64,000 nt of DNA from an uncultured Planctomycetia bacterium (GTDB taxonomy: Bacteria; Omnitrophota; Gorgyraeia; Duberdicusellales; 4484-171). Numbering within the stretch: the stretch's first letter is position 1; each line of letters starts with the position of its first letter. The stretch covers positions 34,861 to 98,860 of the forward strand of contig CAZVRU010000002.1 in assembly GCA_964629785.1 (NCBI GenBank). Reading direction: 5' to 3'. Positions 5,046 to 64,000 of the stretch are shown one piece after another. A model generated the notes under the pieces. The model did no database searches. It had not been told where the DNA came from and saw only the letters and a program-made list of their open reading frames with translations. The position numbers were made by a program, and so were the translations under genes.

Positions 5046-5127
5046 GCCGTCCGGATCTTGAACCGTTTTCCGGCTATTCGTCTGCTGATGAGGGCATTGA
5101 CTTTCTGTCAGAGTCTGGTATAGTTAT

Positions 5128-5928
5128 ATGTTTTTCAAATATATATACGCAGTGTTTCTGATTTTTTTTGTTTCGGCGGCCGGCCCTGGTTTCGCCCAGC
5201 AGACGGTGCGTGATTTTTATCTTTCCAATTATCAGGAAGACGGTTCCAAAGGATGGGAACTTAAAGGCAGGGAAGCGCAGGTTTACGAAAGTCGTGTCGA
5301 GATAAACGACATGAATGCCACCTATTACGGAAAAGATCAGAAAGTCGATATCAGTGCCGATCACGGCACGATGAACAAACCGGGACTGGATACATATTTA
5401 AAGGATAACGTGCGGCTGAAAGGCGAGGACGGTTCTGTTCTTTATACCGAATCGCTGTCCTGGAAGAACGATGCCAGTGTTATCGCCAGCCAGGACGATG
5501 TCTGGCTGGAAAAAGGTGATATGCGGATCAAGGCTGAAGGATTCCAGGCTGAACCCCGGCTTAAGAAAGTCGATTTTCAGAAGAACGTAAAGGTCGATGT
5601 GCCCCAGGAAGGCCGCAGCGCGCCGCTGGCCATAGAGTGCCGGGGCACTCTGGAAGTCGATTTCAATTCGGGCCTTGCCGTATTCAATGACGCGGTAGTG
5701 ATCGATTCCCGTGACGGCAAGGTTTTTTCCGATAAGGCCACGGTCTATTTCGATAGTGAAAATAAGGCTCTGCTCAAGATAGTTGCCGAAGGCAATGTCA
5801 AGATAATCAGGGATGATAATGTGACTTTTGCTCAGCGGGCCGTATACCTGGAAGCGGAAAAAAAATTGCTTCTGGAAGGAAGCCCGCGGCTTATTCTTTT
5901 TCCCGACAATGAAGATTTTAGAAATTAA
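5128..5928 (+). CDS. LptC/LptA (OstA-like) periplasmic LPS transport protein
   Basis: It has an N-terminal signal peptide or anchor and OstA-like repeated beta-jellyroll sequence. It lies directly upstream of, and overlaps, lptB. At 266 aa it is longer than a single LptA, so it may be a fused LptC/LptA. Confidence 0.6.
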   Translation: MFFKYIYAVFLIFFVSAAGPGFAQQTVRDFYLSNYQEDGSKGWELKGREAQVYESRVEINDMNATYYGKDQKVDISADHGTMNKPGLDTYLKDNVRLKGEDGSVLYTESLSWKNDASVIASQDDVWLEKGDMRIKAEGFQAEPRLKKVDFQKNVKVDVPQEGRSAPLAIECRGTLEVDFNSGLAVFNDAVVIDSRDGKVFSDKATVYFDSENKALLKIVAEGNVKIIRDDNVTFAQRAVYLEAEKKLLLEGSPRLILFPDNEDFRN

Positions 5929-6631
5929 AGGTTTGTCTAAAAGATACGGCGGCCGTACAGTAGTCAAGGGTGTTTCCTTGAACGTACAGCGCGGCGAGAT
6001 CGTAGGTTTGCTCGGGCCCAACGGCGCCGGTAAGACCACTACTTTTTACATGATCGTAGGGGTGGTCTTTCCGGACAGCGGCAATATTCTTTATGATAAT
6101 CAGGATATCACCTATCTGTCGATACATAAAAGAGCCCGTTTCGGCATCGGGTATCTTTCCCAGGACCCTTCGGTATTCAGAAAACTTACTGTAGAAGATA
6201 ATATAATGGCAATACTGGAAACTTTGCCTCTTTCCCGCAGCGAGCGGCGCCAGAGGCTGAACGCGCTTCTCAAGGAACTGGATATAAGTCATTTGCGCGA
6301 CAGTTTTGCTTACACTTTAAGCGGGGGAGAAATGAGACGTTTGGAGATAACCCGCAGCCTGGTTACTAATCCGTCCTTTCTTTTGCTTGACGAACCGTTT
6401 TCCGGTATTGACCCGATAGTGGTAAATGAAGCCAAGGAACTGATCGTCGAGTTGAAGAACAAAGGTATCGGTATTCTTCTTACCGATCATAATGTGCGGG
6501 AAACCCTGTCGATAACCGACCGGGCTTATATTATTTATGAAGGGAATATCCTTATTTCCGGGACCTCCCGGGATCTGATCAACGATCCCAAAGCAAGAGA
6601 GATATATCTGGGGAAAAATTTTCAGATGTAG
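5909..6631 (+). CDS. lptB: LPS export ABC transporter ATP-binding protein LptB
   Basis: It has the Walker A motif 'GLLGPNGAGKTTTF', the ABC signature 'LSGGEMRRLEI' and Walker B 'LLLDEP'. The start was chosen at 'MKILEIKGLSKRY', an internal ATG of the track ORF. Confidence 0.88.
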   Translation: MKILEIKGLSKRYGGRTVVKGVSLNVQRGEIVGLLGPNGAGKTTTFYMIVGVVFPDSGNILYDNQDITYLSIHKRARFGIGYLSQDPSVFRKLTVEDNIMAILETLPLSRSERRQRLNALLKELDISHLRDSFAYTLSGGEMRRLEITRSLVTNPSFLLLDEPFSGIDPIVVNEAKELIVELKNKGIGILLTDHNVRETLSITDRAYIIYEGNILISGTSRDLINDPKAREIYLGKNFQM

Positions 6632-29242: not shown

Positions 29243-29260
29243 GAACGGGAAGAAACGGTA

Positions 29261-29965
29261 ATGCGGGTACGCCTGAATATTTTCGAAGGACCTCTTGACC
29301 TTTTGCTGTATCTGATAAAGAAAAATCATCTTGATGTTTATGACATCCCGATCAGTCTGGTAGTCGAACAATATCTGGAATTCCTGGAGGTGATGGAGGT
29401 CCTGGACATAGATATCGCCTCGGAATATCTGGTTATCGCCGCCAATCTGGTTTCGATAAAATCTAAAATGCTGCTTCCTCCGGAAAAGAGCGAGGAGGAA
29501 CTGCAGGAAGATCCCCGCGAAGACCTGGTCAATAAGCTTCTGGAATATCAGAAGTTCAAAGAAGCAGCCGGTTTTCTCCGCGAGCGCGAACAGGACCGGA
29601 CTAAATATGTGTCCCGCCCTACAAGCGAAGGGCCGCAGGAAGTCTTTATCGAAGCTTCTATTTTCGATCTTATCACTGCTTTTAAATCGGCCCTTAAAGA
29701 GGTTCCCAAAGATATCTTTTTCGAGATCATCAAGGATGAGTTCACTATCGAGGAAAAGATCCATGATATTCTGCATGTGCTGGTCCGCCAGGAACGGATC
29801 GGCCTGAAAGATATATTCAGCAGAGCGAAAAACAAGCTGGAAATAATAGTTTCTTTTCTGGCGATACTGGAGTTGATCCGTCTGAGAGAGATCGTTGCGG
29901 TGCAGCACAGTTTGTTCGCCGAAGTGGAGATTATCCGCAGAAACAGCGTGTCGTCGGCAGTATAG
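29261..29965 (+). CDS. scpA: Segregation and condensation protein A
   Basis: The N-terminus 'FEGPLDLLLYLIKKNHLDVYDIPISLVVEQYLEF' is typical of ScpA. Confidence 0.88.
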   Translation: MRVRLNIFEGPLDLLLYLIKKNHLDVYDIPISLVVEQYLEFLEVMEVLDIDIASEYLVIAANLVSIKSKMLLPPEKSEEELQEDPREDLVNKLLEYQKFKEAAGFLREREQDRTKYVSRPTSEGPQEVFIEASIFDLITAFKSALKEVPKDIFFEIIKDEFTIEEKIHDILHVLVRQERIGLKDIFSRAKNKLEIIVSFLAILELIRLREIVAVQHSLFAEVEIIRRNSVSSAV

Positions 29966-31049: not shown

Positions 31050-31262
31050 ATGGGAAAGTTTTTTATTTTTCTGGGGGTTTTATTGGTGCTGGCCGGTGTT
31101 TTACTCATTGCCGGGCCTGATATTAAATTTCCTTTTCCGGGCAGGCTGCCCGGCGATATTATTATAAAAAAAGATAATTTCACTTTTTATTTTCCGCTGA
31201 CGACGTCATTGCTGATAAGTATCCTGATCTCGGCAGTATTTTATCTGATAAACAGGAAGTAA
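31050..31262 (+). CDS. DUF2905-family small membrane protein
   Basis: It has two TM helices and a conserved 'GRLPGDI' motif. The start was taken at 'MGKFFIF'; the track ORF begins earlier at TTG 31005. Confidence 0.6.
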   Translation: MGKFFIFLGVLLVLAGVLLIAGPDIKFPFPGRLPGDIIIKKDNFTFYFPLTTSLLISILISAVFYLINRK

Positions 31263-31281
31263 TGTCTGAATATTCGAAAAA

Positions 31282-31407
31282 GTAGCGAGTAGCAGGTAGA
31301 GAGTAGAGAGAAGGGGAAGGGATATTTACATCTTGATGTTCGATGATTTTCAGGAAAATTGCAATCTGTATTTTTCTCGCTACTTGCTACTCTCTACTCG
31401 CTACTGG
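31282..31407. repeat. Inverted arrays of degenerate AGTAG / CTACT pentamer words flanking a ~65 bp spacer
   Basis: The left arm is agtagcgagtagcaggtagagagtagagag. The right arm is ctcgctacttgctactctctactcgctact. Both end in the 12-nt perfect complement agtagcgagtag / ctactcgctact. Confidence 0.6.
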
Positions 31408-31417
31408 GATAAGCATG

Positions 31418-32533
31418 TTCAAAGTACTGAAGAATGATAAAAAGACTAAAGCACGGCTGGGGAAATTCACCACGCCGCACGGCGAAGTGTCTACTCCGGC
31501 TTTTTTCCCCGTGGCTACTCAGGCGGCCATTAAAGGCATGTCGACCAGACAGCTGAAAGAGATCGGCCCTCAGGGAATACTGGTAAATGCTTATCATCTT
31601 AATCTGCGGCCCGGCACCGAGATCATAAAAGCTGCCGGAGGATTGCATTCCTTTATGGGTTTTGACCGGACAATCGTCAGCGACAGCGGCGGTTATCAGG
31701 TTTTCAGTCTGGAGGGGCTGCGCAAAGTATCGTCAGAGGGAGTCGAGTTTCAATCTCATCTGGACGGAAGCAGGATATTCCTTACTCCGGAAGAAGTAGT
31801 CCGGATCCAGCTTGATCTGGGGACTGATGTGGTGCTGCCTCTCGATGAATGCGTTAAATATCCAACGTCCCGCGATTATGCGGTCCTGGCAGTGGACAGG
31901 ACAGTGGAATGGGCCCGGAAGTCGGTTTCTTTTTTCCGCGCTTCAGACAGTAAGTCGTTGTTTTTTGCCATAAGCCAGGGAGCCACTTATTCTGAGCTGA
32001 GGCAGGAATGTCTAGAGCGGCTATGTGAACTGGATATTGACGGCATTGCCGTGGGGGGATTGAGCGTCGGCGAGCCGGAAGGTCTGCGTTACGAAATGCT
32101 TTCTTTGACTACCGACAGGCTGCGAACCGGGAAAAAAGACTGTCTGGTTTATTTTATGGGTTATGGAAAGCCGCGCGATATTCTGGAAGCAGTAGAGCTG
32201 GGCGCCGATATGTTCGATTGCGTGGTGCCGACCCGTTACGGACGTACCGGCACTGCCTTTACTTCCCGCGGCAAACTGGTCGTGAGGAACGCCGAATTTG
32301 CCCGCGATTTTTCGCCTCTTGATGAGAATTGCCAGTGTTTTGTCTGCCAGAACTACAGCCGCGCCTATCTGCGGCATTTGATCAATGCCCGGGAGATAGC
32401 CGGTGCCGAAATGCTTACTTACCATAATCTCTGGTGGTATAAGAATTTTATCCGCTCTCTGCGCCGGGCCATCGAAGAAGACCGTTTTTCTGAATTCAAA
32501 AAAGAATTTCTTTCTGCCTATAAAGAAGATTAG
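31418..32533 (+). CDS. tgt: Queuine tRNA-ribosyltransferase
   Basis: It has 'TPHGEVSTPAFFPVATQAAIKG' and the zinc site 'CQCFVCQNYSRAYLRHL'. The start was chosen at 'MFKVL', because the upstream part of the track ORF is occupied by a repeat arm. Confidence 0.9.
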   Translation, partial: FKVLKNDKKTKARLGKFTTPHGEVSTPAFFPVATQAAIKGMSTRQLKEIGPQGILVNAYHLNLRPGTEIIKAAGGLHSFMGFDRTIVSDSGGYQVFSLEGLRKVSSEGVEFQSHLDGSRIFLTPEEVVRIQLDLGTDVVLPLDECVKYPTSRDYAVLAVDRTVEWARKSVSFFRASDSKSLFFAISQGATYSELRQECLERLCELDIDGIAVGGLSVGEPEGLRYEMLSLTTDRLRTGKKDCLVYFMGYGKPRDILEAVELGADMFDCVVPTRYGRTGTAFTSRGKLVVRNAEFARDFSPLDENCQCFVCQNYSRAYLRHLINAREIAGAEMLTYHNLWWYKNFIRSLRRAIEEDRFSEFKKEFLSAYKED

Positions 32534-38368: not shown

Positions 38369-38471
38369 CCGTTTTTACCGTATTTTCGCCTTTCCCGGCT
38401 GTTAAACCCCTTAATGCCGGAAAAGGCGGTGAAGCGCATCCGGCAGAGTCCGGTGCCGACTGAAACAGATT

Positions 38472-40019: not shown

Positions 40020-40210
40020 GTTCAGACAGAAAAACTTTCTTTAATATTTGACCGGACTTCCGGCTTTTGGTAAATGGTTTTGTTTGACGGTTAAGCTGCC
40101 GGTTTTGGCCCGAGCCAGCGGTTACGTCTTCATTCAGGATGTTTTTACGTTGCCGTTAAACGTTAAACGATACGGTTTGGCAACCTTAAATCCTATACTC
40201 TGAATAAAAG

Positions 40211-48158: not shown

Positions 48159-49601
48159 ATGGCCAAAATGATTCAGAGTATTCTGGGAAAGAAAAGACGC
48201 AACTGGAGTCTGCTGCTGATTCCACTGGCTTTTTTTTCGGTCAGCGGATTTGTCTTTAAACTGTACGGGGTCGATTTTTCCCCTTTATTTCTGGCTCTGA
48301 TCCTTTTTGCCTATGCCAGATTCGTAAGGAAAATAGAAAAGCTGCCTTCCAATATAGACCTGCTTATTCTTTTCGGCCTGGCGGTGGTCATTGCTTTGCT
48401 TGTCAACCAGGTCGATCCGCTGCATAAGAATCTCGCCTATGGTATCTATGCCATAGGTTTTGCCATGCTGGTCACTCTTCTTTTCGATAACATGGAAATA
48501 TCCCTGCTTTTTTCCCTGCTCGTCTCTTTTTTGACCGCCAGTGTCGAGAAAGGCGATTTTACCGTGCTGATCTCTCTTTTCTGCGCCTTAGCCTGCGTGA
48601 GCATGCTCAGTTACCGTATCCGCCGCCGTTCCCAGATAATCAGGGCCGGTCTGCTCAGCGGTTTTGTCCAGTTTTTTATCCGGCTGGCAGTGGAGGACTA
48701 TCAGAATTTTTCCATGCTCAACCTGTCTGATATGTTTTTTTTCCGGACCTTTGCCCTGGACAGCCTGTCCTTTCTGGCCAGCGGTCTTATCGCCTCGGTA
48801 GTGGTCATCGGCGTTCTGCCGATCTTCGAATATGTGTTCAAGACCGTGACCAACATATCTCTGCTGGAACTTTCCGATTTTAATCATCCCTTATTGAGAA
48901 AAATGATCCTCGAGGCACCAGGTACCTACCAGCATTCTCTGGTGGTGGCCAATCTGGCCGAAAGCGCGGCTGAAGCCATTTCTGCCAACCCGCTGCTGGC
49001 CCGGGTCGGTTCCTATTATCACGATATCGGAAAAATACCCAAAGCCAATTATTTCGTGGAAAATCTGATACCTTACCGTGATGTGCATAAAGACCTTAAA
49101 CCATCGATCAGCAAGATGATCATCATGAACCATGTCAAAGAAGGCGCAGAGCTGGCCGCCCGTCATAAGCTGAATCCCCGCATAATCGATTTTATCGAGC
49201 AGCATCACGGAAAAAGCCTGGTCTATTACTTCTATCACCGGGCCAAGGAACTGGAGCCGGATAAAGAGAGAGAATATGAAGAAGAATACCGCTATCCCGG
49301 ACCGCGTCCTCAATCCCGGGAAGTGGCTATAGTGGCCCTGGCTGACGCTATCGAAGCTCTGTCCCGGACTATGGAAGAGCCTACGCCGTCACGCCTGGAA
49401 GAAATGGTCAGGGAAGTGGTGCGTAAAAAGTTCATGGAAGGAGAGCTTGACGAAAGCAACCTGACGCTCCGCGACCTGGAACGGATCACCCAGAGCTTTG
49501 TCCGGGTGCTCAATGCCATATTCCATACCCGGATAAATTACCCTAAAGATGAAAGTTCGACTAAAAAATCTTCAAAAGGCAAAGAAGATAGATCTGATTG
49601 A
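48159..49601 (+). CDS. 7TM-HD membrane phosphohydrolase (YqfF/HDIG family)
   Basis: It has seven N-terminal TM helices followed by an HD domain ('HSLVVANLAE', 'YHDIGK'). The phoH-HD-ybeY context is conserved. Confidence 0.85.
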   Translation: MAKMIQSILGKKRRNWSLLLIPLAFFSVSGFVFKLYGVDFSPLFLALILFAYARFVRKIEKLPSNIDLLILFGLAVVIALLVNQVDPLHKNLAYGIYAIGFAMLVTLLFDNMEISLLFSLLVSFLTASVEKGDFTVLISLFCALACVSMLSYRIRRRSQIIRAGLLSGFVQFFIRLAVEDYQNFSMLNLSDMFFFRTFALDSLSFLASGLIASVVVIGVLPIFEYVFKTVTNISLLELSDFNHPLLRKMILEAPGTYQHSLVVANLAESAAEAISANPLLARVGSYYHDIGKIPKANYFVENLIPYRDVHKDLKPSISKMIIMNHVKEGAELAARHKLNPRIIDFIEQHHGKSLVYYFYHRAKELEPDKEREYEEEYRYPGPRPQSREVAIVALADAIEALSRTMEEPTPSRLEEMVREVVRKKFMEGELDESNLTLRDLERITQSFVRVLNAIFHTRINYPKDESSTKKSSKGKEDRSD

Positions 49602-49977
49602 ACTGCGCCGCCGGATAGGCAAAGTCCTCTGCGCCCTGGGTCAAGAAGAAAAACAAATCGAGATCGTTCTCTGCGATAATCGCCTTATCCGGGAATTGAA
49701 CCGCGATTTTCTGGGCAAAGACAATCCCACGGATGTCATCGCCTTCCCCCTGGACGGAGAAGACTGTCAGGGGATATGGGGGATAGTTGTGATATCTGTG
49801 GAAGAAGCGGATATTTACAGCCGCGCCCATGGCCTTGCCTGGCAGGAAGAAATGTTGCGCTATATCGTTCACGGCATCCTTCATCTGCACGGCTATAAAG
49901 ATAAGGCCGCTGATGACCGGCAGCGGATGCGGCGCAAAGAAAACCAGCTGTTAAAAAAAGTAGAGAGTAGAGATTAG
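49549..49977 (+). CDS. ybeY: Endoribonuclease YbeY (16S rRNA 3' maturation)
   Basis: It has the zinc motif 'HGILHLHGYKD'. It overlaps the upstream gene by about 50 nt, so the true start may be downstream. Confidence 0.85.
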   Translation: MKVRLKNLQKAKKIDLIELRRRIGKVLCALGQEEKQIEIVLCDNRLIRELNRDFLGKDNPTDVIAFPLDGEDCQGIWGIVVISVEEADIYSRAHGLAWQEEMLRYIVHGILHLHGYKDKAADDRQRMRRKENQLLKKVESRD

Positions 49978-50178
49978 GGTGATACGAATGCAAATTGCAA
50001 CCTGCCTCGACGGCAAGGCGGGATTTAACATTTAGCATTGCAAAATTGGACTGTGGACTGTGGTCCGCTCGCCCTGAGCGAAGCCGAAGGGTGGTCTGGC
50101 GTCTGTTTTACTTGTCGCCTTCAGACTTGTCGACTTGCAACTTGTCACGTGTAACTTGCGACTTTTTCCTATAGGCCA

Positions 50179-50913
50179 GTGACTATTATGGTAGAAAAAG
50201 ACATTGCTTTCGTATTGAAGCGGACCGATTTCCGGGAAACAAGCATAATCGTTACTATGTTCAGCCGCAACTACGGGAAGATGACCGGCATATTAAAAGG
50301 GTTCTATACGGCAAAGAAAGAGTTTACTTCGTCCATGGACACCTACACTCTTAATCAGATAGTCTTTTATCCCAAACAGACCAGTATCTGGCTGGTATCT
50401 TTCTCTGACCTGCTGAAGGACTGTCCTTATCTGCGAACCGACTATGCCAGGAATCGCGCGGCTGCCAAATGCAGCGAGGCCCTGGATACAGTGCTGCCTT
50501 TCTGGGAAAAAAATGAAGCCGTGTTCAGGCTTTTTTACCTGACCCTTGCGGCCCTGAAACAGGTCGAGGTCCAGAAGGCGGTCTATATTTTTTTCATTAA
50601 ACTGCTGACTTTGTGCGGATTGAAGCCTCAGTTCAAGACCTGCCTGCATTGCGGCCTGTCTCTGGAAAGAAATCTTTTTTTCAGTTATTCGGCCGGGGGC
50701 CTGGTCTGCGGCCGCTGCCGTTCTTTCTACGGCGATGCCTATCCGCTTTTGCCGGAAACAGCATCGTCTATTTATTACATTCAGCATAATAATTTCCCTC
50801 ATGTGCTGCGCATTAATCCCACCCTGCGCTGTACAGAACAGATATTGTCGCTTCTTGACCGGTTCCTTGCTTATCATCTGCATTTTAATCTATTAGCCAA
50901 AGCGGAGATGTGA
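50179..50913 (+). CDS. recO: DNA repair protein RecO
   Basis: It has an OB-fold N-terminus ('VLKRTDFRETSIIVTMFSRNYGKMTGILKG') and a C-terminal zinc finger 'CLHCG...CGRC'. The first ATG is at 50188, and the track has GTG at 50179. Confidence 0.8.
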   Translation: MTIMVEKDIAFVLKRTDFRETSIIVTMFSRNYGKMTGILKGFYTAKKEFTSSMDTYTLNQIVFYPKQTSIWLVSFSDLLKDCPYLRTDYARNRAAAKCSEALDTVLPFWEKNEAVFRLFYLTLAALKQVEVQKAVYIFFIKLLTLCGLKPQFKTCLHCGLSLERNLFFSYSAGGLVCGRCRSFYGDAYPLLPETASSIYYIQHNNFPHVLRINPTLRCTEQILSLLDRFLAYHLHFNLLAKAEM

Positions 50914-51353: not shown

Positions 51354-51513
51354 CGTCTGGCGTTTAGCGGATAGGGTTGCGACTTCGTCGCGAGGTAATG
51401 TGAAATAGATAATTTCTAATTGACCTGATTTGGAAAATGTCTGAATATAAATTTATGTGTAGCGCGGAGCGTTCCCTGAACGCTAACCGCTAAACCCTAA
51501 CCGCTGTTTTACT

Positions 51514-60644: not shown

Positions 60645-60717
60645 GCGCCCATAGCTCAGCAGGACAGAGCGCTGGCCTCCTAAGCCGGAAATGGCCGTTC
60701 GAGTCGGCCTGGGCGCA
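60645..60717 (+). tRNA. tRNA-Arg (anticodon CCU), CCA not encoded
   Basis: A manual cloverleaf gives a 7-bp acceptor stem GCGCCCA/UGGGCGC, a D-stem GCUC/GAGC, and an anticodon stem CUGGC/GCCGG with one G-U pair. The anticodon loop is cUCCUaa (U33, CCU, A37), and the T-arm is GGCCG-UUCGAGU-CGGCC. The discriminator is A, followed by UAU. Confidence 0.8.
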
Positions 60718-60719
60718 TA

Positions 60720-60840
60720 TATCAGCTCTTAGCTCATGGCTCATAGCTCATAATCAAAAGTTATGCGTTATACGTTATAAGTTATGAGTTAAAATCCGGG
60801 AAATCCGCACTGATAACTGATAACTGATAACTTGTAACTC
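60720..60840. repeat. Three consecutive degenerate word arrays (AGCTCAT x4; GTTAT x5; ATAACTG x3), the last two forming an inverted pair
   Basis: The three arrays read agctcttagctcatggctcatagctcat, aagttatgcgttatacgttataagttatgagtt and tgataactgataactgataacttgtaact. A 20 nt spacer separates the last two. They lie immediately 3' of tRNA-Arg. Confidence 0.6.
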
Positions 60841-62499: not shown

Positions 62500-62535
62500 A
62501 AAACCCCCGGGGATTTTCCCCGGGGGTTTTTTTTT
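62500..62535 (+). terminator. Rho-independent terminator (13-bp GC-rich stem AAAACCCCCGGGG / CCCCGGGGGTTTT plus U9 tract)
   Basis: A perfect inverted repeat with a 5-nt loop is followed by nine T. It lies 15 nt after the OMP stop codon. Confidence 0.9.
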
Positions 62536-63924: not shown

Positions 63925-64000
63925 TTGGCTAACCGCCAAAGTTATAAGTTACACGTTACAAGTTATGAGTTGATGAATGCAAAATTCGTCCCGGCAACTC

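Follow-up and report, generated by a model that had tools for sequence, protein, structure and literature searches.

What occupies the space between ybeY and recO in an uncultured member of the Omnitrophota: a repeat tract, an inserted element or an RNA? The two genes lie in a 64,000-nucleotide (nt) stretch of contig CAZVRU010000002.1 (GenBank assembly GCA_964629785.1, positions 34,861 to 98,860 of the forward strand), which was analysed at its full length and is referred to here as the window. An initial annotation had described a 200 nt spacer holding three different repeat motifs, along with a module that begins inside the ybeY 3' end and may encode a structured RNA. The spacer exists, but its length is 210 nt (49978-50187) given the recO start at ATG 50188. 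The spacer, together with the last five codons of ybeY, was found to be built as a mosaic from at least six degenerate tandem arrays of heptanucleotides. Locally it is the densest case of a feature present in the non-coding DNA of this genome and of its Omnitrophota relatives.

A heptanucleotide mosaic between ybeY and recO

Comparison of 49957-50187 with itself gave an identity of 0.455 at a lag of 7 nt (z = 7.0), the next highest lags being 15 (z = 3.1) and 14 (z = 2.7) and all remaining ones at background. The score at lag 3 was z = -1.0, so that no coding periodicity is seen in the tract. Six lag-7 segments were counted in the spacer region versus 0.18 expected in shuffled sequences (shuffle maximum of 2), and Tandem Repeats Finder (TRF) called three arrays there, two of period 7 and one of period 14/15. 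The spacer is organised by period 7 and by no other period, and what had been taken for three different motifs is one period-7 phenomenon. Set out in a 7-nt register, the 5' part reads AGTAGAG AGTAGAG ATTAGGG; AATGCAA ATTGCAA; GATTTAA CATTTAG CATTGCA, and the 3' part reads ACTGTGG ACTGTGG; TGGTCTG GCGTCTG; and, further on, CTTGCAA CTTGTCA CGTGTAA CTTGCGA CTTTTTC. The only parts of the tract without heptamer periodicity are two short GC-rich stems (50001-50022 and 50064-50093), which appear in both the minimum free energy (MFE) and the centroid structures. The features of the region are as follows.

49549-49977, + strand: ybeY coding sequence, 142 amino acids; Pfam PF02130, E 2.6e-27, residues 31-137
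49959-49977, + strand: heptamer array 1, AGTAGAG AGTAGAG ATTAG, 2.7 copies; TRF period 7 and lag-7 segment
49989-50000, + strand: heptamer segment 2, TGCAAAT TGCAA; lag-7 segment
50001-50022, + strand: short GC-rich local stem, CCTGCC...GGCAAGG, without a terminator-like tail
50023-50039, + strand: heptamer segment 3, ATTTAAC ATTTAGC ATT; lag-7 segment, score 7
50047-50063, + strand: heptamer array 4, TGGACTG repeated 2.4 times, perfect; TRF period 7 with 100% matches, and lag-7 segment
50064-50093, + strand: GC-rich local stem-loop, CGCCCT GAGCGAAGCCGA AGGGTG; no copy elsewhere
50094-50105, + strand: heptamer segment 5, GTCTGGC GTCTG; lag-7 segment
50110-50167, + strand: heptamer array 6, recO-proximal, ACTTGnn, six to seven units, one of 8 nt; TRF periods 14/15 (50110-50164)
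50168-50187, + strand: rest of the recO leader, without a Shine-Dalgarno-like motif; aligned with related locus L028
50188-50913, + strand: recO coding sequence; Pfam RecO_N and RecO_C; N-terminus MVEKD kept in relatives

The strings singled out in the initial annotation are all present where it had placed them, and the reading of two of them changes. The "perfect tandem" ggactgtg-gactgtgg is really the 7-nt unit TGGACTG repeated 2.4 times (50047-50063), and the "near-palindrome" gcaaattgcaa is two heptamer units, TGCAAAT TGCAA (49989-50000). Its five ACTTG words were confirmed as exact and lie within 55 nt, starting at 50110, 50125, 50133, 50140 and 50154; the + strand of the whole window holds 21 such words, and the Poisson probability of at least five in 55 nt is P ~1.6e-11.

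Heptamer arrays in the window and in related genomes

Across the window eight period-7 arrays were found versus 0.7 expected at a lower threshold, and four versus 0 at a stricter one, while the other periods from 4 to 15 were mostly at background (period 15 reached four versus 0.2 at the lower threshold). Lag-7 z-scores of 2.2-7.4 were obtained in five or six of about 20 non-coding stretches, of which the ybeY-recO spacer was the strongest, and the same analysis of 50 kb of E. coli, used as a control, returned no period-7 arrays. The signal is carried by about a third of the larger spacers in the window and by many spacers of related genomes. The arrays outside the spacer are listed here.

31277-31405, + strand: element upstream of tgt; inverted pair of AGTAGnG arrays; the hairpin ends 10 nt before the tgt ATG
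40154-40169, + strand: element in the guaA-dnaE spacer; CGTTAAA repeated 2.3 times; TRF
51458-51505, + strand: element upstream of polX, reaching to 8 nt from the polX ATG; CGCTAAC-type array, short inverted partner; TRF
60724-60832, + strand: elements downstream of tRNA-Arg; AGCTCAT repeated 4 times, then AAGTTAT repeated 4.9 times paired with TAACTGA repeated 3.4 times; TRF
63939-63973, + strand: AAGTTAY array, 14 nt past a stop codon; TRF; lag-7 z = 4.1; a partner arm, if any, would fall past the window end

The spacer has sequence in common with some of these arrays. The 14-mer GTAGAGAGTAGAGA is found exactly at the ybeY 3' end (49960-49973) and upstream of tgt (31296-31309), with two near-copies on the minus strand at 31384-31404, giving four matches at no more than two mismatches versus 0.21 expected; none of 100 shuffles reached four. 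The sharing of this 14-mer with the tgt-upstream element, already noticed in the initial annotation, is real and non-random. A 16-mer, AAAAAGTAGnGAGTAG, is common to the spacer array and 31277-31309 with one mismatch. The AAGTTAY arrays at 60758-60791 and 63939-63973 are complementary to the ACTTGnn array, whose inverted match to 63938-63973 amounts to 78% over 36 nt.

Related loci, labelled L001 to L029, were recovered via the HD protein encoded beside ybeY and come mostly from metagenome-assembled genomes labelled Omnitrophota, three being labelled Planctomycetia or Planctomycetales; non-coding DNA in them was defined by crude gene calls. In about 270 kb of these loci period 7 was the commonest tandem period (37 arrays), and 20 of the 37 fell mostly within the 6.6% of the DNA that is non-coding, whereas arrays of periods 6, 9, 12 and 15 were mostly in genes. 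The feature is made up of head-to-tail 7-nt units in excess over composition, and its enrichment in non-coding DNA is unlike that of the multiple-of-3 periods. Array pairs differing by at most one base accounted for 18% of same-genome versus 1.1% of between-genome pairs (permutation p <0.0002); it is because arrays within one genome share units that GTAGAGAGTAGAGA is common to the ybeY tail and the tgt-upstream element.

Several smaller observations concern these elements. Three consecutive heptamer arrays follow from 7 nt past tRNA-Arg (60645-60717), the last being the perfect (TAACTGA)x3.4 at 60809-60832. After the AAGTTAY array, in 63938-64000, comes GAATGCAAAATT, which is similar to GAATGCAAATT in the spacer. 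In the distant genome L006, an element that precedes polX (6310-6482) has almost the same arms as the tgt-upstream hairpin (31262-31418); the string AGTAGCGAGTAGCA is common to both, as is CTCTCTACTCGCTACT about 10 nt before each start codon. An exact 12-mer, ATGTCTGAATAT, occurs twice in the window (31262-31273 and 51437-51448), in both cases in intergenic DNA just before an array hairpin (tgt and polX); at no more than two mismatches it has nine occurrences versus 4.7 expected, a weak enrichment. TTGACC is found at 51420, 17 nt upstream of GAATAT, and the promoter scan calls neither ATGTCTGAATAT site. Neither a sigma-70-like promoter nor a + strand terminator was found in the two related window elements scanned.

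Repeat-encoded gene ends and paired arrays

The ybeY gene ends gta gag agt aga gat TAG. Array 1 forms its codons 138-142 (VESRD) and its stop, all of which lie past the Pfam YbeY domain (last residue 137). It had been proposed that the repeat starts inside ybeY and that aligned C-termini would show whether the tail is peculiar to this lineage. Both points were borne out: the AGTAGAG array supplies the VESRD codons and the stop, and the tail is lineage-specific, none of about 140 YbeY homologues examined sharing it in an alignment that shows variable C-termini (the closest homologue, at 56% identity, ends in QKIG). The further proposal that the repeat redefined the ybeY 3' end holds in substance, but the agent is a growing repeat tract rather than an inserted module, since in BLAST searches the flanks and centre of the spacer had no copy elsewhere in the window or in 280 kb of related loci.

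Similar tails are seen in relatives. In L005 and L006, L021 and L028 the first arm of a hairpin lies inside the ybeY frame and gives YbeY a long, idiosyncratic tail, and among the relatives searched the array-encoded tail of L005 and L006 is carried by those two only. In L001, the nearest relative, which is metagenome-derived and has the same gene order as the window, an AGAGGCA array starts at the ybeY stop codon. Arrays run into gene 3' ends and write lineage-specific C-terminal tails. The last residues of YbeY, and those of QueF in relatives, are repeat-encoded, so that care is needed in calling gene ends and starts beside arrays.

Arrays also overrun the queF 3' end: in L001 (11668-11705) the final residues of QueF and its stop codon come from an (AAAAAGT)x5.4 array, and the queF stop in L006 (6318-6329) is the TAG of the first AAAAAGTAG unit.

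A complementary array was present within 200 nt for 22 of 57 period-7 or period-14 arrays (~40%). Folding of such inverted pairs gives long hairpins, regularly mismatched and far more stable than shuffled sequences, and the paired arrays often span the gap from the stop codon of one gene to the start codon of the next. Predicted folds were scored as follows.

Upstream of tgt, window: -50.8 kcal/mol, z = -4.6
Downstream of tRNA-Arg, window: z = -3.65
Upstream of polX, window: z = -2.4; inverted partner z = 5.1
ybeY-recO junction of L028: z = -5.8
ybeY-recO junction of L006: z = -6.0
ybeY-recO junction of L022: z = -8.3
ybeY-recO junction of L021: z = -2.9

For the three called arrays of the window spacer no significant inverted partner was found (z -1.7 to 0.7). 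The MFE of the spacer was no better than that of shuffles (z = +0.82; 163 of 200 shuffles at least as stable), and its recO-proximal part gave z = -0.76.

The adjacency of ybeY and recO is kept across the Omnitrophota loci. In L009-L012, L015, L016, L019, L024-L027 and L029 the two genes overlap or lie less than 30 nt apart, some with a Shine-Dalgarno motif; a long spacer is present in some lineages only, and is made of arrays or hairpins there. In two more distant Omnitrophota, L017 (11535-11637) and L014 (3532-3603), the spacer carries ordinary GC-rich hairpins and not heptamer arrays, the first of those in L017 preceding a T-rich run, so that some hairpin recurs at the ybeY-recO junction even without heptamers.

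Conservation of the arrays differs from one comparison to the next. The window at 50141-50164 matches, in 22 of 24 positions, the array that directly precedes recO in L028 (alignment and BLAST; E 0.002-0.013 even against the whole data set), while third codon positions of recO and ybeY are only 38-39% identical between the two, meaning that synonymous sites are saturated. Between the end of the ACTTGnn array and the recO ATG lie about 20 nt in the window and 4 nt in L028, and in the alignment the leader at 50168-50187 shows a 14-nt (2x7) insertion relative to L028 followed by a degenerate GTGACTA unit. L005 and L006 are 67% identical over 3.6 kb (third positions 39-48%), and their ybeY-recO junction hairpin of about 130 nt (L005 2085-2273, L006 4986-5174) is about 98% identical, with three mismatches and the same array copy numbers. 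This hairpin with the array-encoded tail is the only island of more than 90% identity in the 3.6-kb alignment, and may reflect purifying selection or else transfer/conversion. The window and L001, which are similarly diverged, carry wholly different units, and lengths, in the same intergenic slots; the guaA-dnaE slot of L001, for example, holds a GTAAGTC/CTTACGA inverted pair. The arrays are neither classical hypervariable contingency repeats nor uniformly conserved.

Origin and possible roles of the arrays

We consider it probable that the spacer is a heptanucleotide simple sequence repeat (SSR) mosaic, expanded by slippage, and one part of a feature found throughout this genome and its relatives. 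The spacer would have grown from an ancestral tight ybeY/recO junction, a starting state suggested by the many Omnitrophota in which the two genes overlap or lie less than 30 nt apart. Growth would have proceeded by repeated slipped-strand duplication of 7 nt followed by decay through point mutation, which would explain why similarity drops fast beyond one or two units. The ACTTGnn array may be what is left, as a 3' arm, of an inverted-array hairpin. In L028 this hairpin is intact and reaches from the YbeY tail to the recO start, whereas in this genome the 5' arm would have been lost or replaced. The promoter scan found no sigma-70-like promoter in the spacer, and no intrinsic terminator (GC-rich stem and U-tract) was found on the + strand between 49800 and 50300, the sole terminator-like match lying within ybeY on the minus strand. 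In the absence of both signals, the spacer would be transcribed as an essentially unstructured intercistronic leader of recO, forming part of a ybeY-recO co-transcript. The ACTTGnn tract probably still influences recO expression through the RNA, either in translation initiation or as a tract to which a protein binds, and the remaining arrays are probably near-neutral filler. The account is mostly deflationary: the spacer itself would be an ordinary, if unusually dense, repeat tract, and neither a new RNA nor a mobile module.

Several results weigh against this account. The contrast in L005 and L006 between a hairpin of ~98% identity and flanks of 67% indicates that some arrays are constrained and do not freely expand and decay. 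Five population samples of L001 (99.9-100% identical) showed no array indels, so that slippage itself was not seen. The ACTTG array does not occur in L001, so that descent from a common hairpin holds only if L001 has lost the array; otherwise the arrays would have been seeded independently out of a unit vocabulary that is shared. The candidate relic of the 5' arm, TGCAAAT TGCAACC, was indistinguishable from chance (z = 0.7 as partner of ACTTG). Finally, co-transcription and the RNA-level role are steps that we infer.

The spacer repeats are a known kind of bacterial heptamer SSR, in a phylum new for it; full-text literature searches found no report of heptameric repeats in Omnitrophota. According to Mrazek (2007), as summarised in two later papers (PMC4679880, PMC4692102), long SSRs are more often heptamers than any other class in most repeat-rich bacterial genomes of the survey, and slippage of the polymerase was put forward as the cause of the excess. 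The short tandemly repeated repetitive (STRR) sequences of heterocystous cyanobacteria, Calothrix and Anabaena/Nostoc (Mazel et al. 1990, in the account given by PMC4692102), likewise have a 7-nt unit, head-to-tail order, intergenic position, several families per genome, a species-specific vocabulary and no known function. They differ from the present arrays, which are in an Omnitrophota host, are short (2-6 copies), pack unrelated units into one spacer and often form inverted pairs; being non-cyanobacterial and built of units such as AGTAGAG, TGGACTG and ACTTGnn, these arrays are not STRR sequences proper. The STRR units CCCCAGT, TTGGTCA and CAACAGT were not seen here.

TAACTGA direct repeats are found in marine Beggiatoaceae, cyanobacteria and some Bacteroidetes (MacGregor 2015, PMC4679880), directly upstream of start codons without a Shine-Dalgarno motif, and in the Beggiatoaceae one unit is dominant and related heptamers are rare, with 169 sets direct and one inverted. 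The window arrays resemble them in having 2-6 copies, in being intergenic and apparently upstream of non-Shine-Dalgarno starts of housekeeping genes, and in including (TAACTGA)x3.4; unlike them, many units coexist here, ~40% of the arrays are in inverted pairs, and the spacer is without a TAACTGA unit. The GGGAATC/GGGGAYT heptamers of Xanthomonas and Nostoc (Rehm et al. 2015, PMC4692102) also form an intergenic excess, occupy the same gene slots with variable sequence and length, and include some inverted pairs able to form stem-loops, but they are G-rich and form G-quadruplexes, whereas no unit here is a G-tract. Multicopy elements of Geobacter metallireducens, with four or five tandem heptamers (GGACCGG; MTYCTGA) at tens of sites (PMC2700814), are similarly short and dispersed, with a proposed regulatory role and some opposite-strand pairs; they differ in having one consensus per family and some copies inside genes, and belong to another phylum.

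Phase-variation repeats in Haemophilus influenzae 5' untranslated regions (PMC12721329) are comparable as tandem simple-sequence repeats upstream of a gene. Those contingency loci are long and hypervariable and serve surface-antigen genes, unlike the short arrays here with their housekeeping neighbours and no length variation in five samples. At the hmw loci of H. influenzae the repeat unit is also 7 nt. For the arrays in inverted pairs, a functional analogy is offered by the repetitive extragenic palindromic (REP) sequences and bacterial interspersed mosaic elements (BIMEs) of Enterobacteria and pseudomonads, which are also extragenic, dispersed and able to form imperfect intercistronic hairpins. 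REPs protect upstream mRNA and punctuate operons, and are tied to REP-associated tyrosine transposases (RAYTs) and a GTAG/CGTC tag. Their arms are not tandem heptamers, and the spacer, unlike other arrays of the window that do form stem-loops, is not palindromic. Heptameric tandem repeats have been on record from cyanobacteria since 1990, with Xanthomonas, Beggiatoaceae and Geobacter added later; to our knowledge, neither their function nor their generating mechanism has been established.

By this analogy, the likeliest roles of the paired arrays would be those of REP/BIME- or phage-type intercistronic stem-loops in mRNA processing or protection, or else masking of the downstream initiation region, relieved by ribosomes translating the first arm; unpaired tracts could offer a platform to which proteins bind, as MacGregor proposed for TAACTGA. 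A bolder version, which we hold possible but doubtful, is that Omnitrophota have a so far undescribed class of intercistronic hairpins with complementary heptamer-array arms, running from a stop codon (or coding tail) to the next start, either under purifying selection at the nucleotide level or actively homogenised/transferred, and acting in operon punctuation as REP/BIME or phage T7 hairpins do; the spacer would then be a half-decayed member whose conserved 3' arm still acts on recO. If this were true, such hairpins would be cut by RNase during processing, protect 3' ends, or couple translation by being unwound by the upstream ribosome.

It is unlikely, though the best of the competing explanations, that the arrays are binding platforms for an oligomeric RNA-binding (less likely DNA-binding) protein with a core every 7 nt, controlling translation or stability of the downstream cistron (here recO) and kept by selection and not by slippage. 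The 22/24 match of the recO-proximal array to L028 despite saturated synonymous sites and the ~98% identical L005/L006 junction amid 67% flanks both favour it, as do the genome-specific unit vocabularies and the position of array ends, 4-25 nt ahead of start codons without a Shine-Dalgarno motif. The AGUAGAG units also resemble the target of Bacillus HutP, UAG triplets spaced 7 nt apart. A single binder would be insufficient, however, for the unrelated units (AGTAGAG, TGGACTG, ATTTAAC, ACTTGnn) that coexist in the genome and in the spacer, and the window and L001 have entirely different units in the same slots. A test of whether the arrays contain a conserved 5-nt core followed by 2 variable nt did not reach significance. 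For the TAACTGA repeats S1, Csp or CsrA has been proposed as the binding protein (PMC4679880); no candidate binding protein was identified here.

That a discrete mobile or modular element (similar to a REP or a miniature inverted-repeat transposable element, MITE) was inserted into the ybeY 3' end and replaced the C-terminus, as had first been suggested, is improbable. The lineage-specific YbeY tail would fit such an event, and so would the exact 14-mer and the one-mismatch AAAAAGTAGnGAGTAG shared with 31277-31309, the 13-mer AAATTGCAAYCTG found in the same order in the spacer and tgt elements, and the homologues of the tgt-element arms before a different gene, polX of L006. In BLAST searches of the window and 280 kb of related loci, however, the matches of the spacer were from array to array only: array units alone matched, with no shared flank, terminal inverted repeats, target duplication or full-length copies as in a MITE, and the central 100 nt had no copy. 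AAATTGCAAYCTG has two exact copies and no significant overall enrichment, and a 12/13 match is expected by chance window-wide (p ~0.04 if limited to the tgt element). The spacer arrays, moreover, are without inverted partners.

Still less credible is the suggestion that the spacer is a structured non-coding or cis-regulatory RNA, such as a riboswitch or attenuator. Local stems are predicted at 50001-50022, 50047-50065 and 50069-50092, and the same junction folds into very stable hairpins in relatives, but the spacer is no more stable than shuffled sequence either as a whole or in its 3' part. The proposed cmscan search against Rfam 15 gave no family at the gathering score, and up to E 10 only chance matches inside ybeY; in the whole window it returned tRNA-Arg only, and in seven related loci, hairpins included, only a cobalamin riboswitch in L007. 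The spacer cannot be aligned with that of any relative and so there is no covariation to draw on, while in an alignment of four CAGCTGA-type hairpins from relatives the paired columns were invariant and carry no information on covariation. A small protein is barely conceivable, and the initial view that no open reading frame (ORF) is supported stands: mechanical ORFs exist on both strands (one of 59 amino acids starting with TTG, 49995-50174, and two of 38), but they have no Pfam match and no lag-3 signal, the dominant period of 7 shifts the reading frame at each unit, and the spacer is absent or unrelated in all relatives.

Omnitrophota are an uncultured phylum whose cells are very small and whose genomes are compact, and heptamer repeats in them provide an additional independent lineage in which the phenomenon can be studied. 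The informative features here are the inverted hairpins, the rewritten C-termini of housekeeping proteins, and one hairpin far better conserved than its neighbouring genes; beyond the spacer itself, the heptamer-array hairpins as a family deserve attention, and so does the ultraconserved junction of L005 and L006.

The spacer lies in an operon-like run of genes, all on the + strand, in the order phoH, a 7TM-HD hydrolase gene, ybeY, recO, queF and polX. The closest relatives are 56% identical to the window in YbeY and 65% in RecO. The cobalamin riboswitch of L007 (20849-20999; Rfam RF00174, 33.6 bits) is unrelated to the repeats. Two apparent ORF-free stretches of the window, 5046-5827 and 29243-29894, which came from a crude gene caller, were rejected because both contain real genes. 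The intergenic stretch at 38369-38471 gave z = 4.7 at lag 9 and z = 4.0 at lag 10, with no lag-7 signal. At 62500-62530 a perfect 14-bp GC-rich palindrome lies between runs of A and T (AAAACCCCCGGGGATTTTCCCCGGGGGTTTTTTTTT); it resembles a canonical bidirectional intrinsic terminator, showing that the organism uses ordinary terminators.

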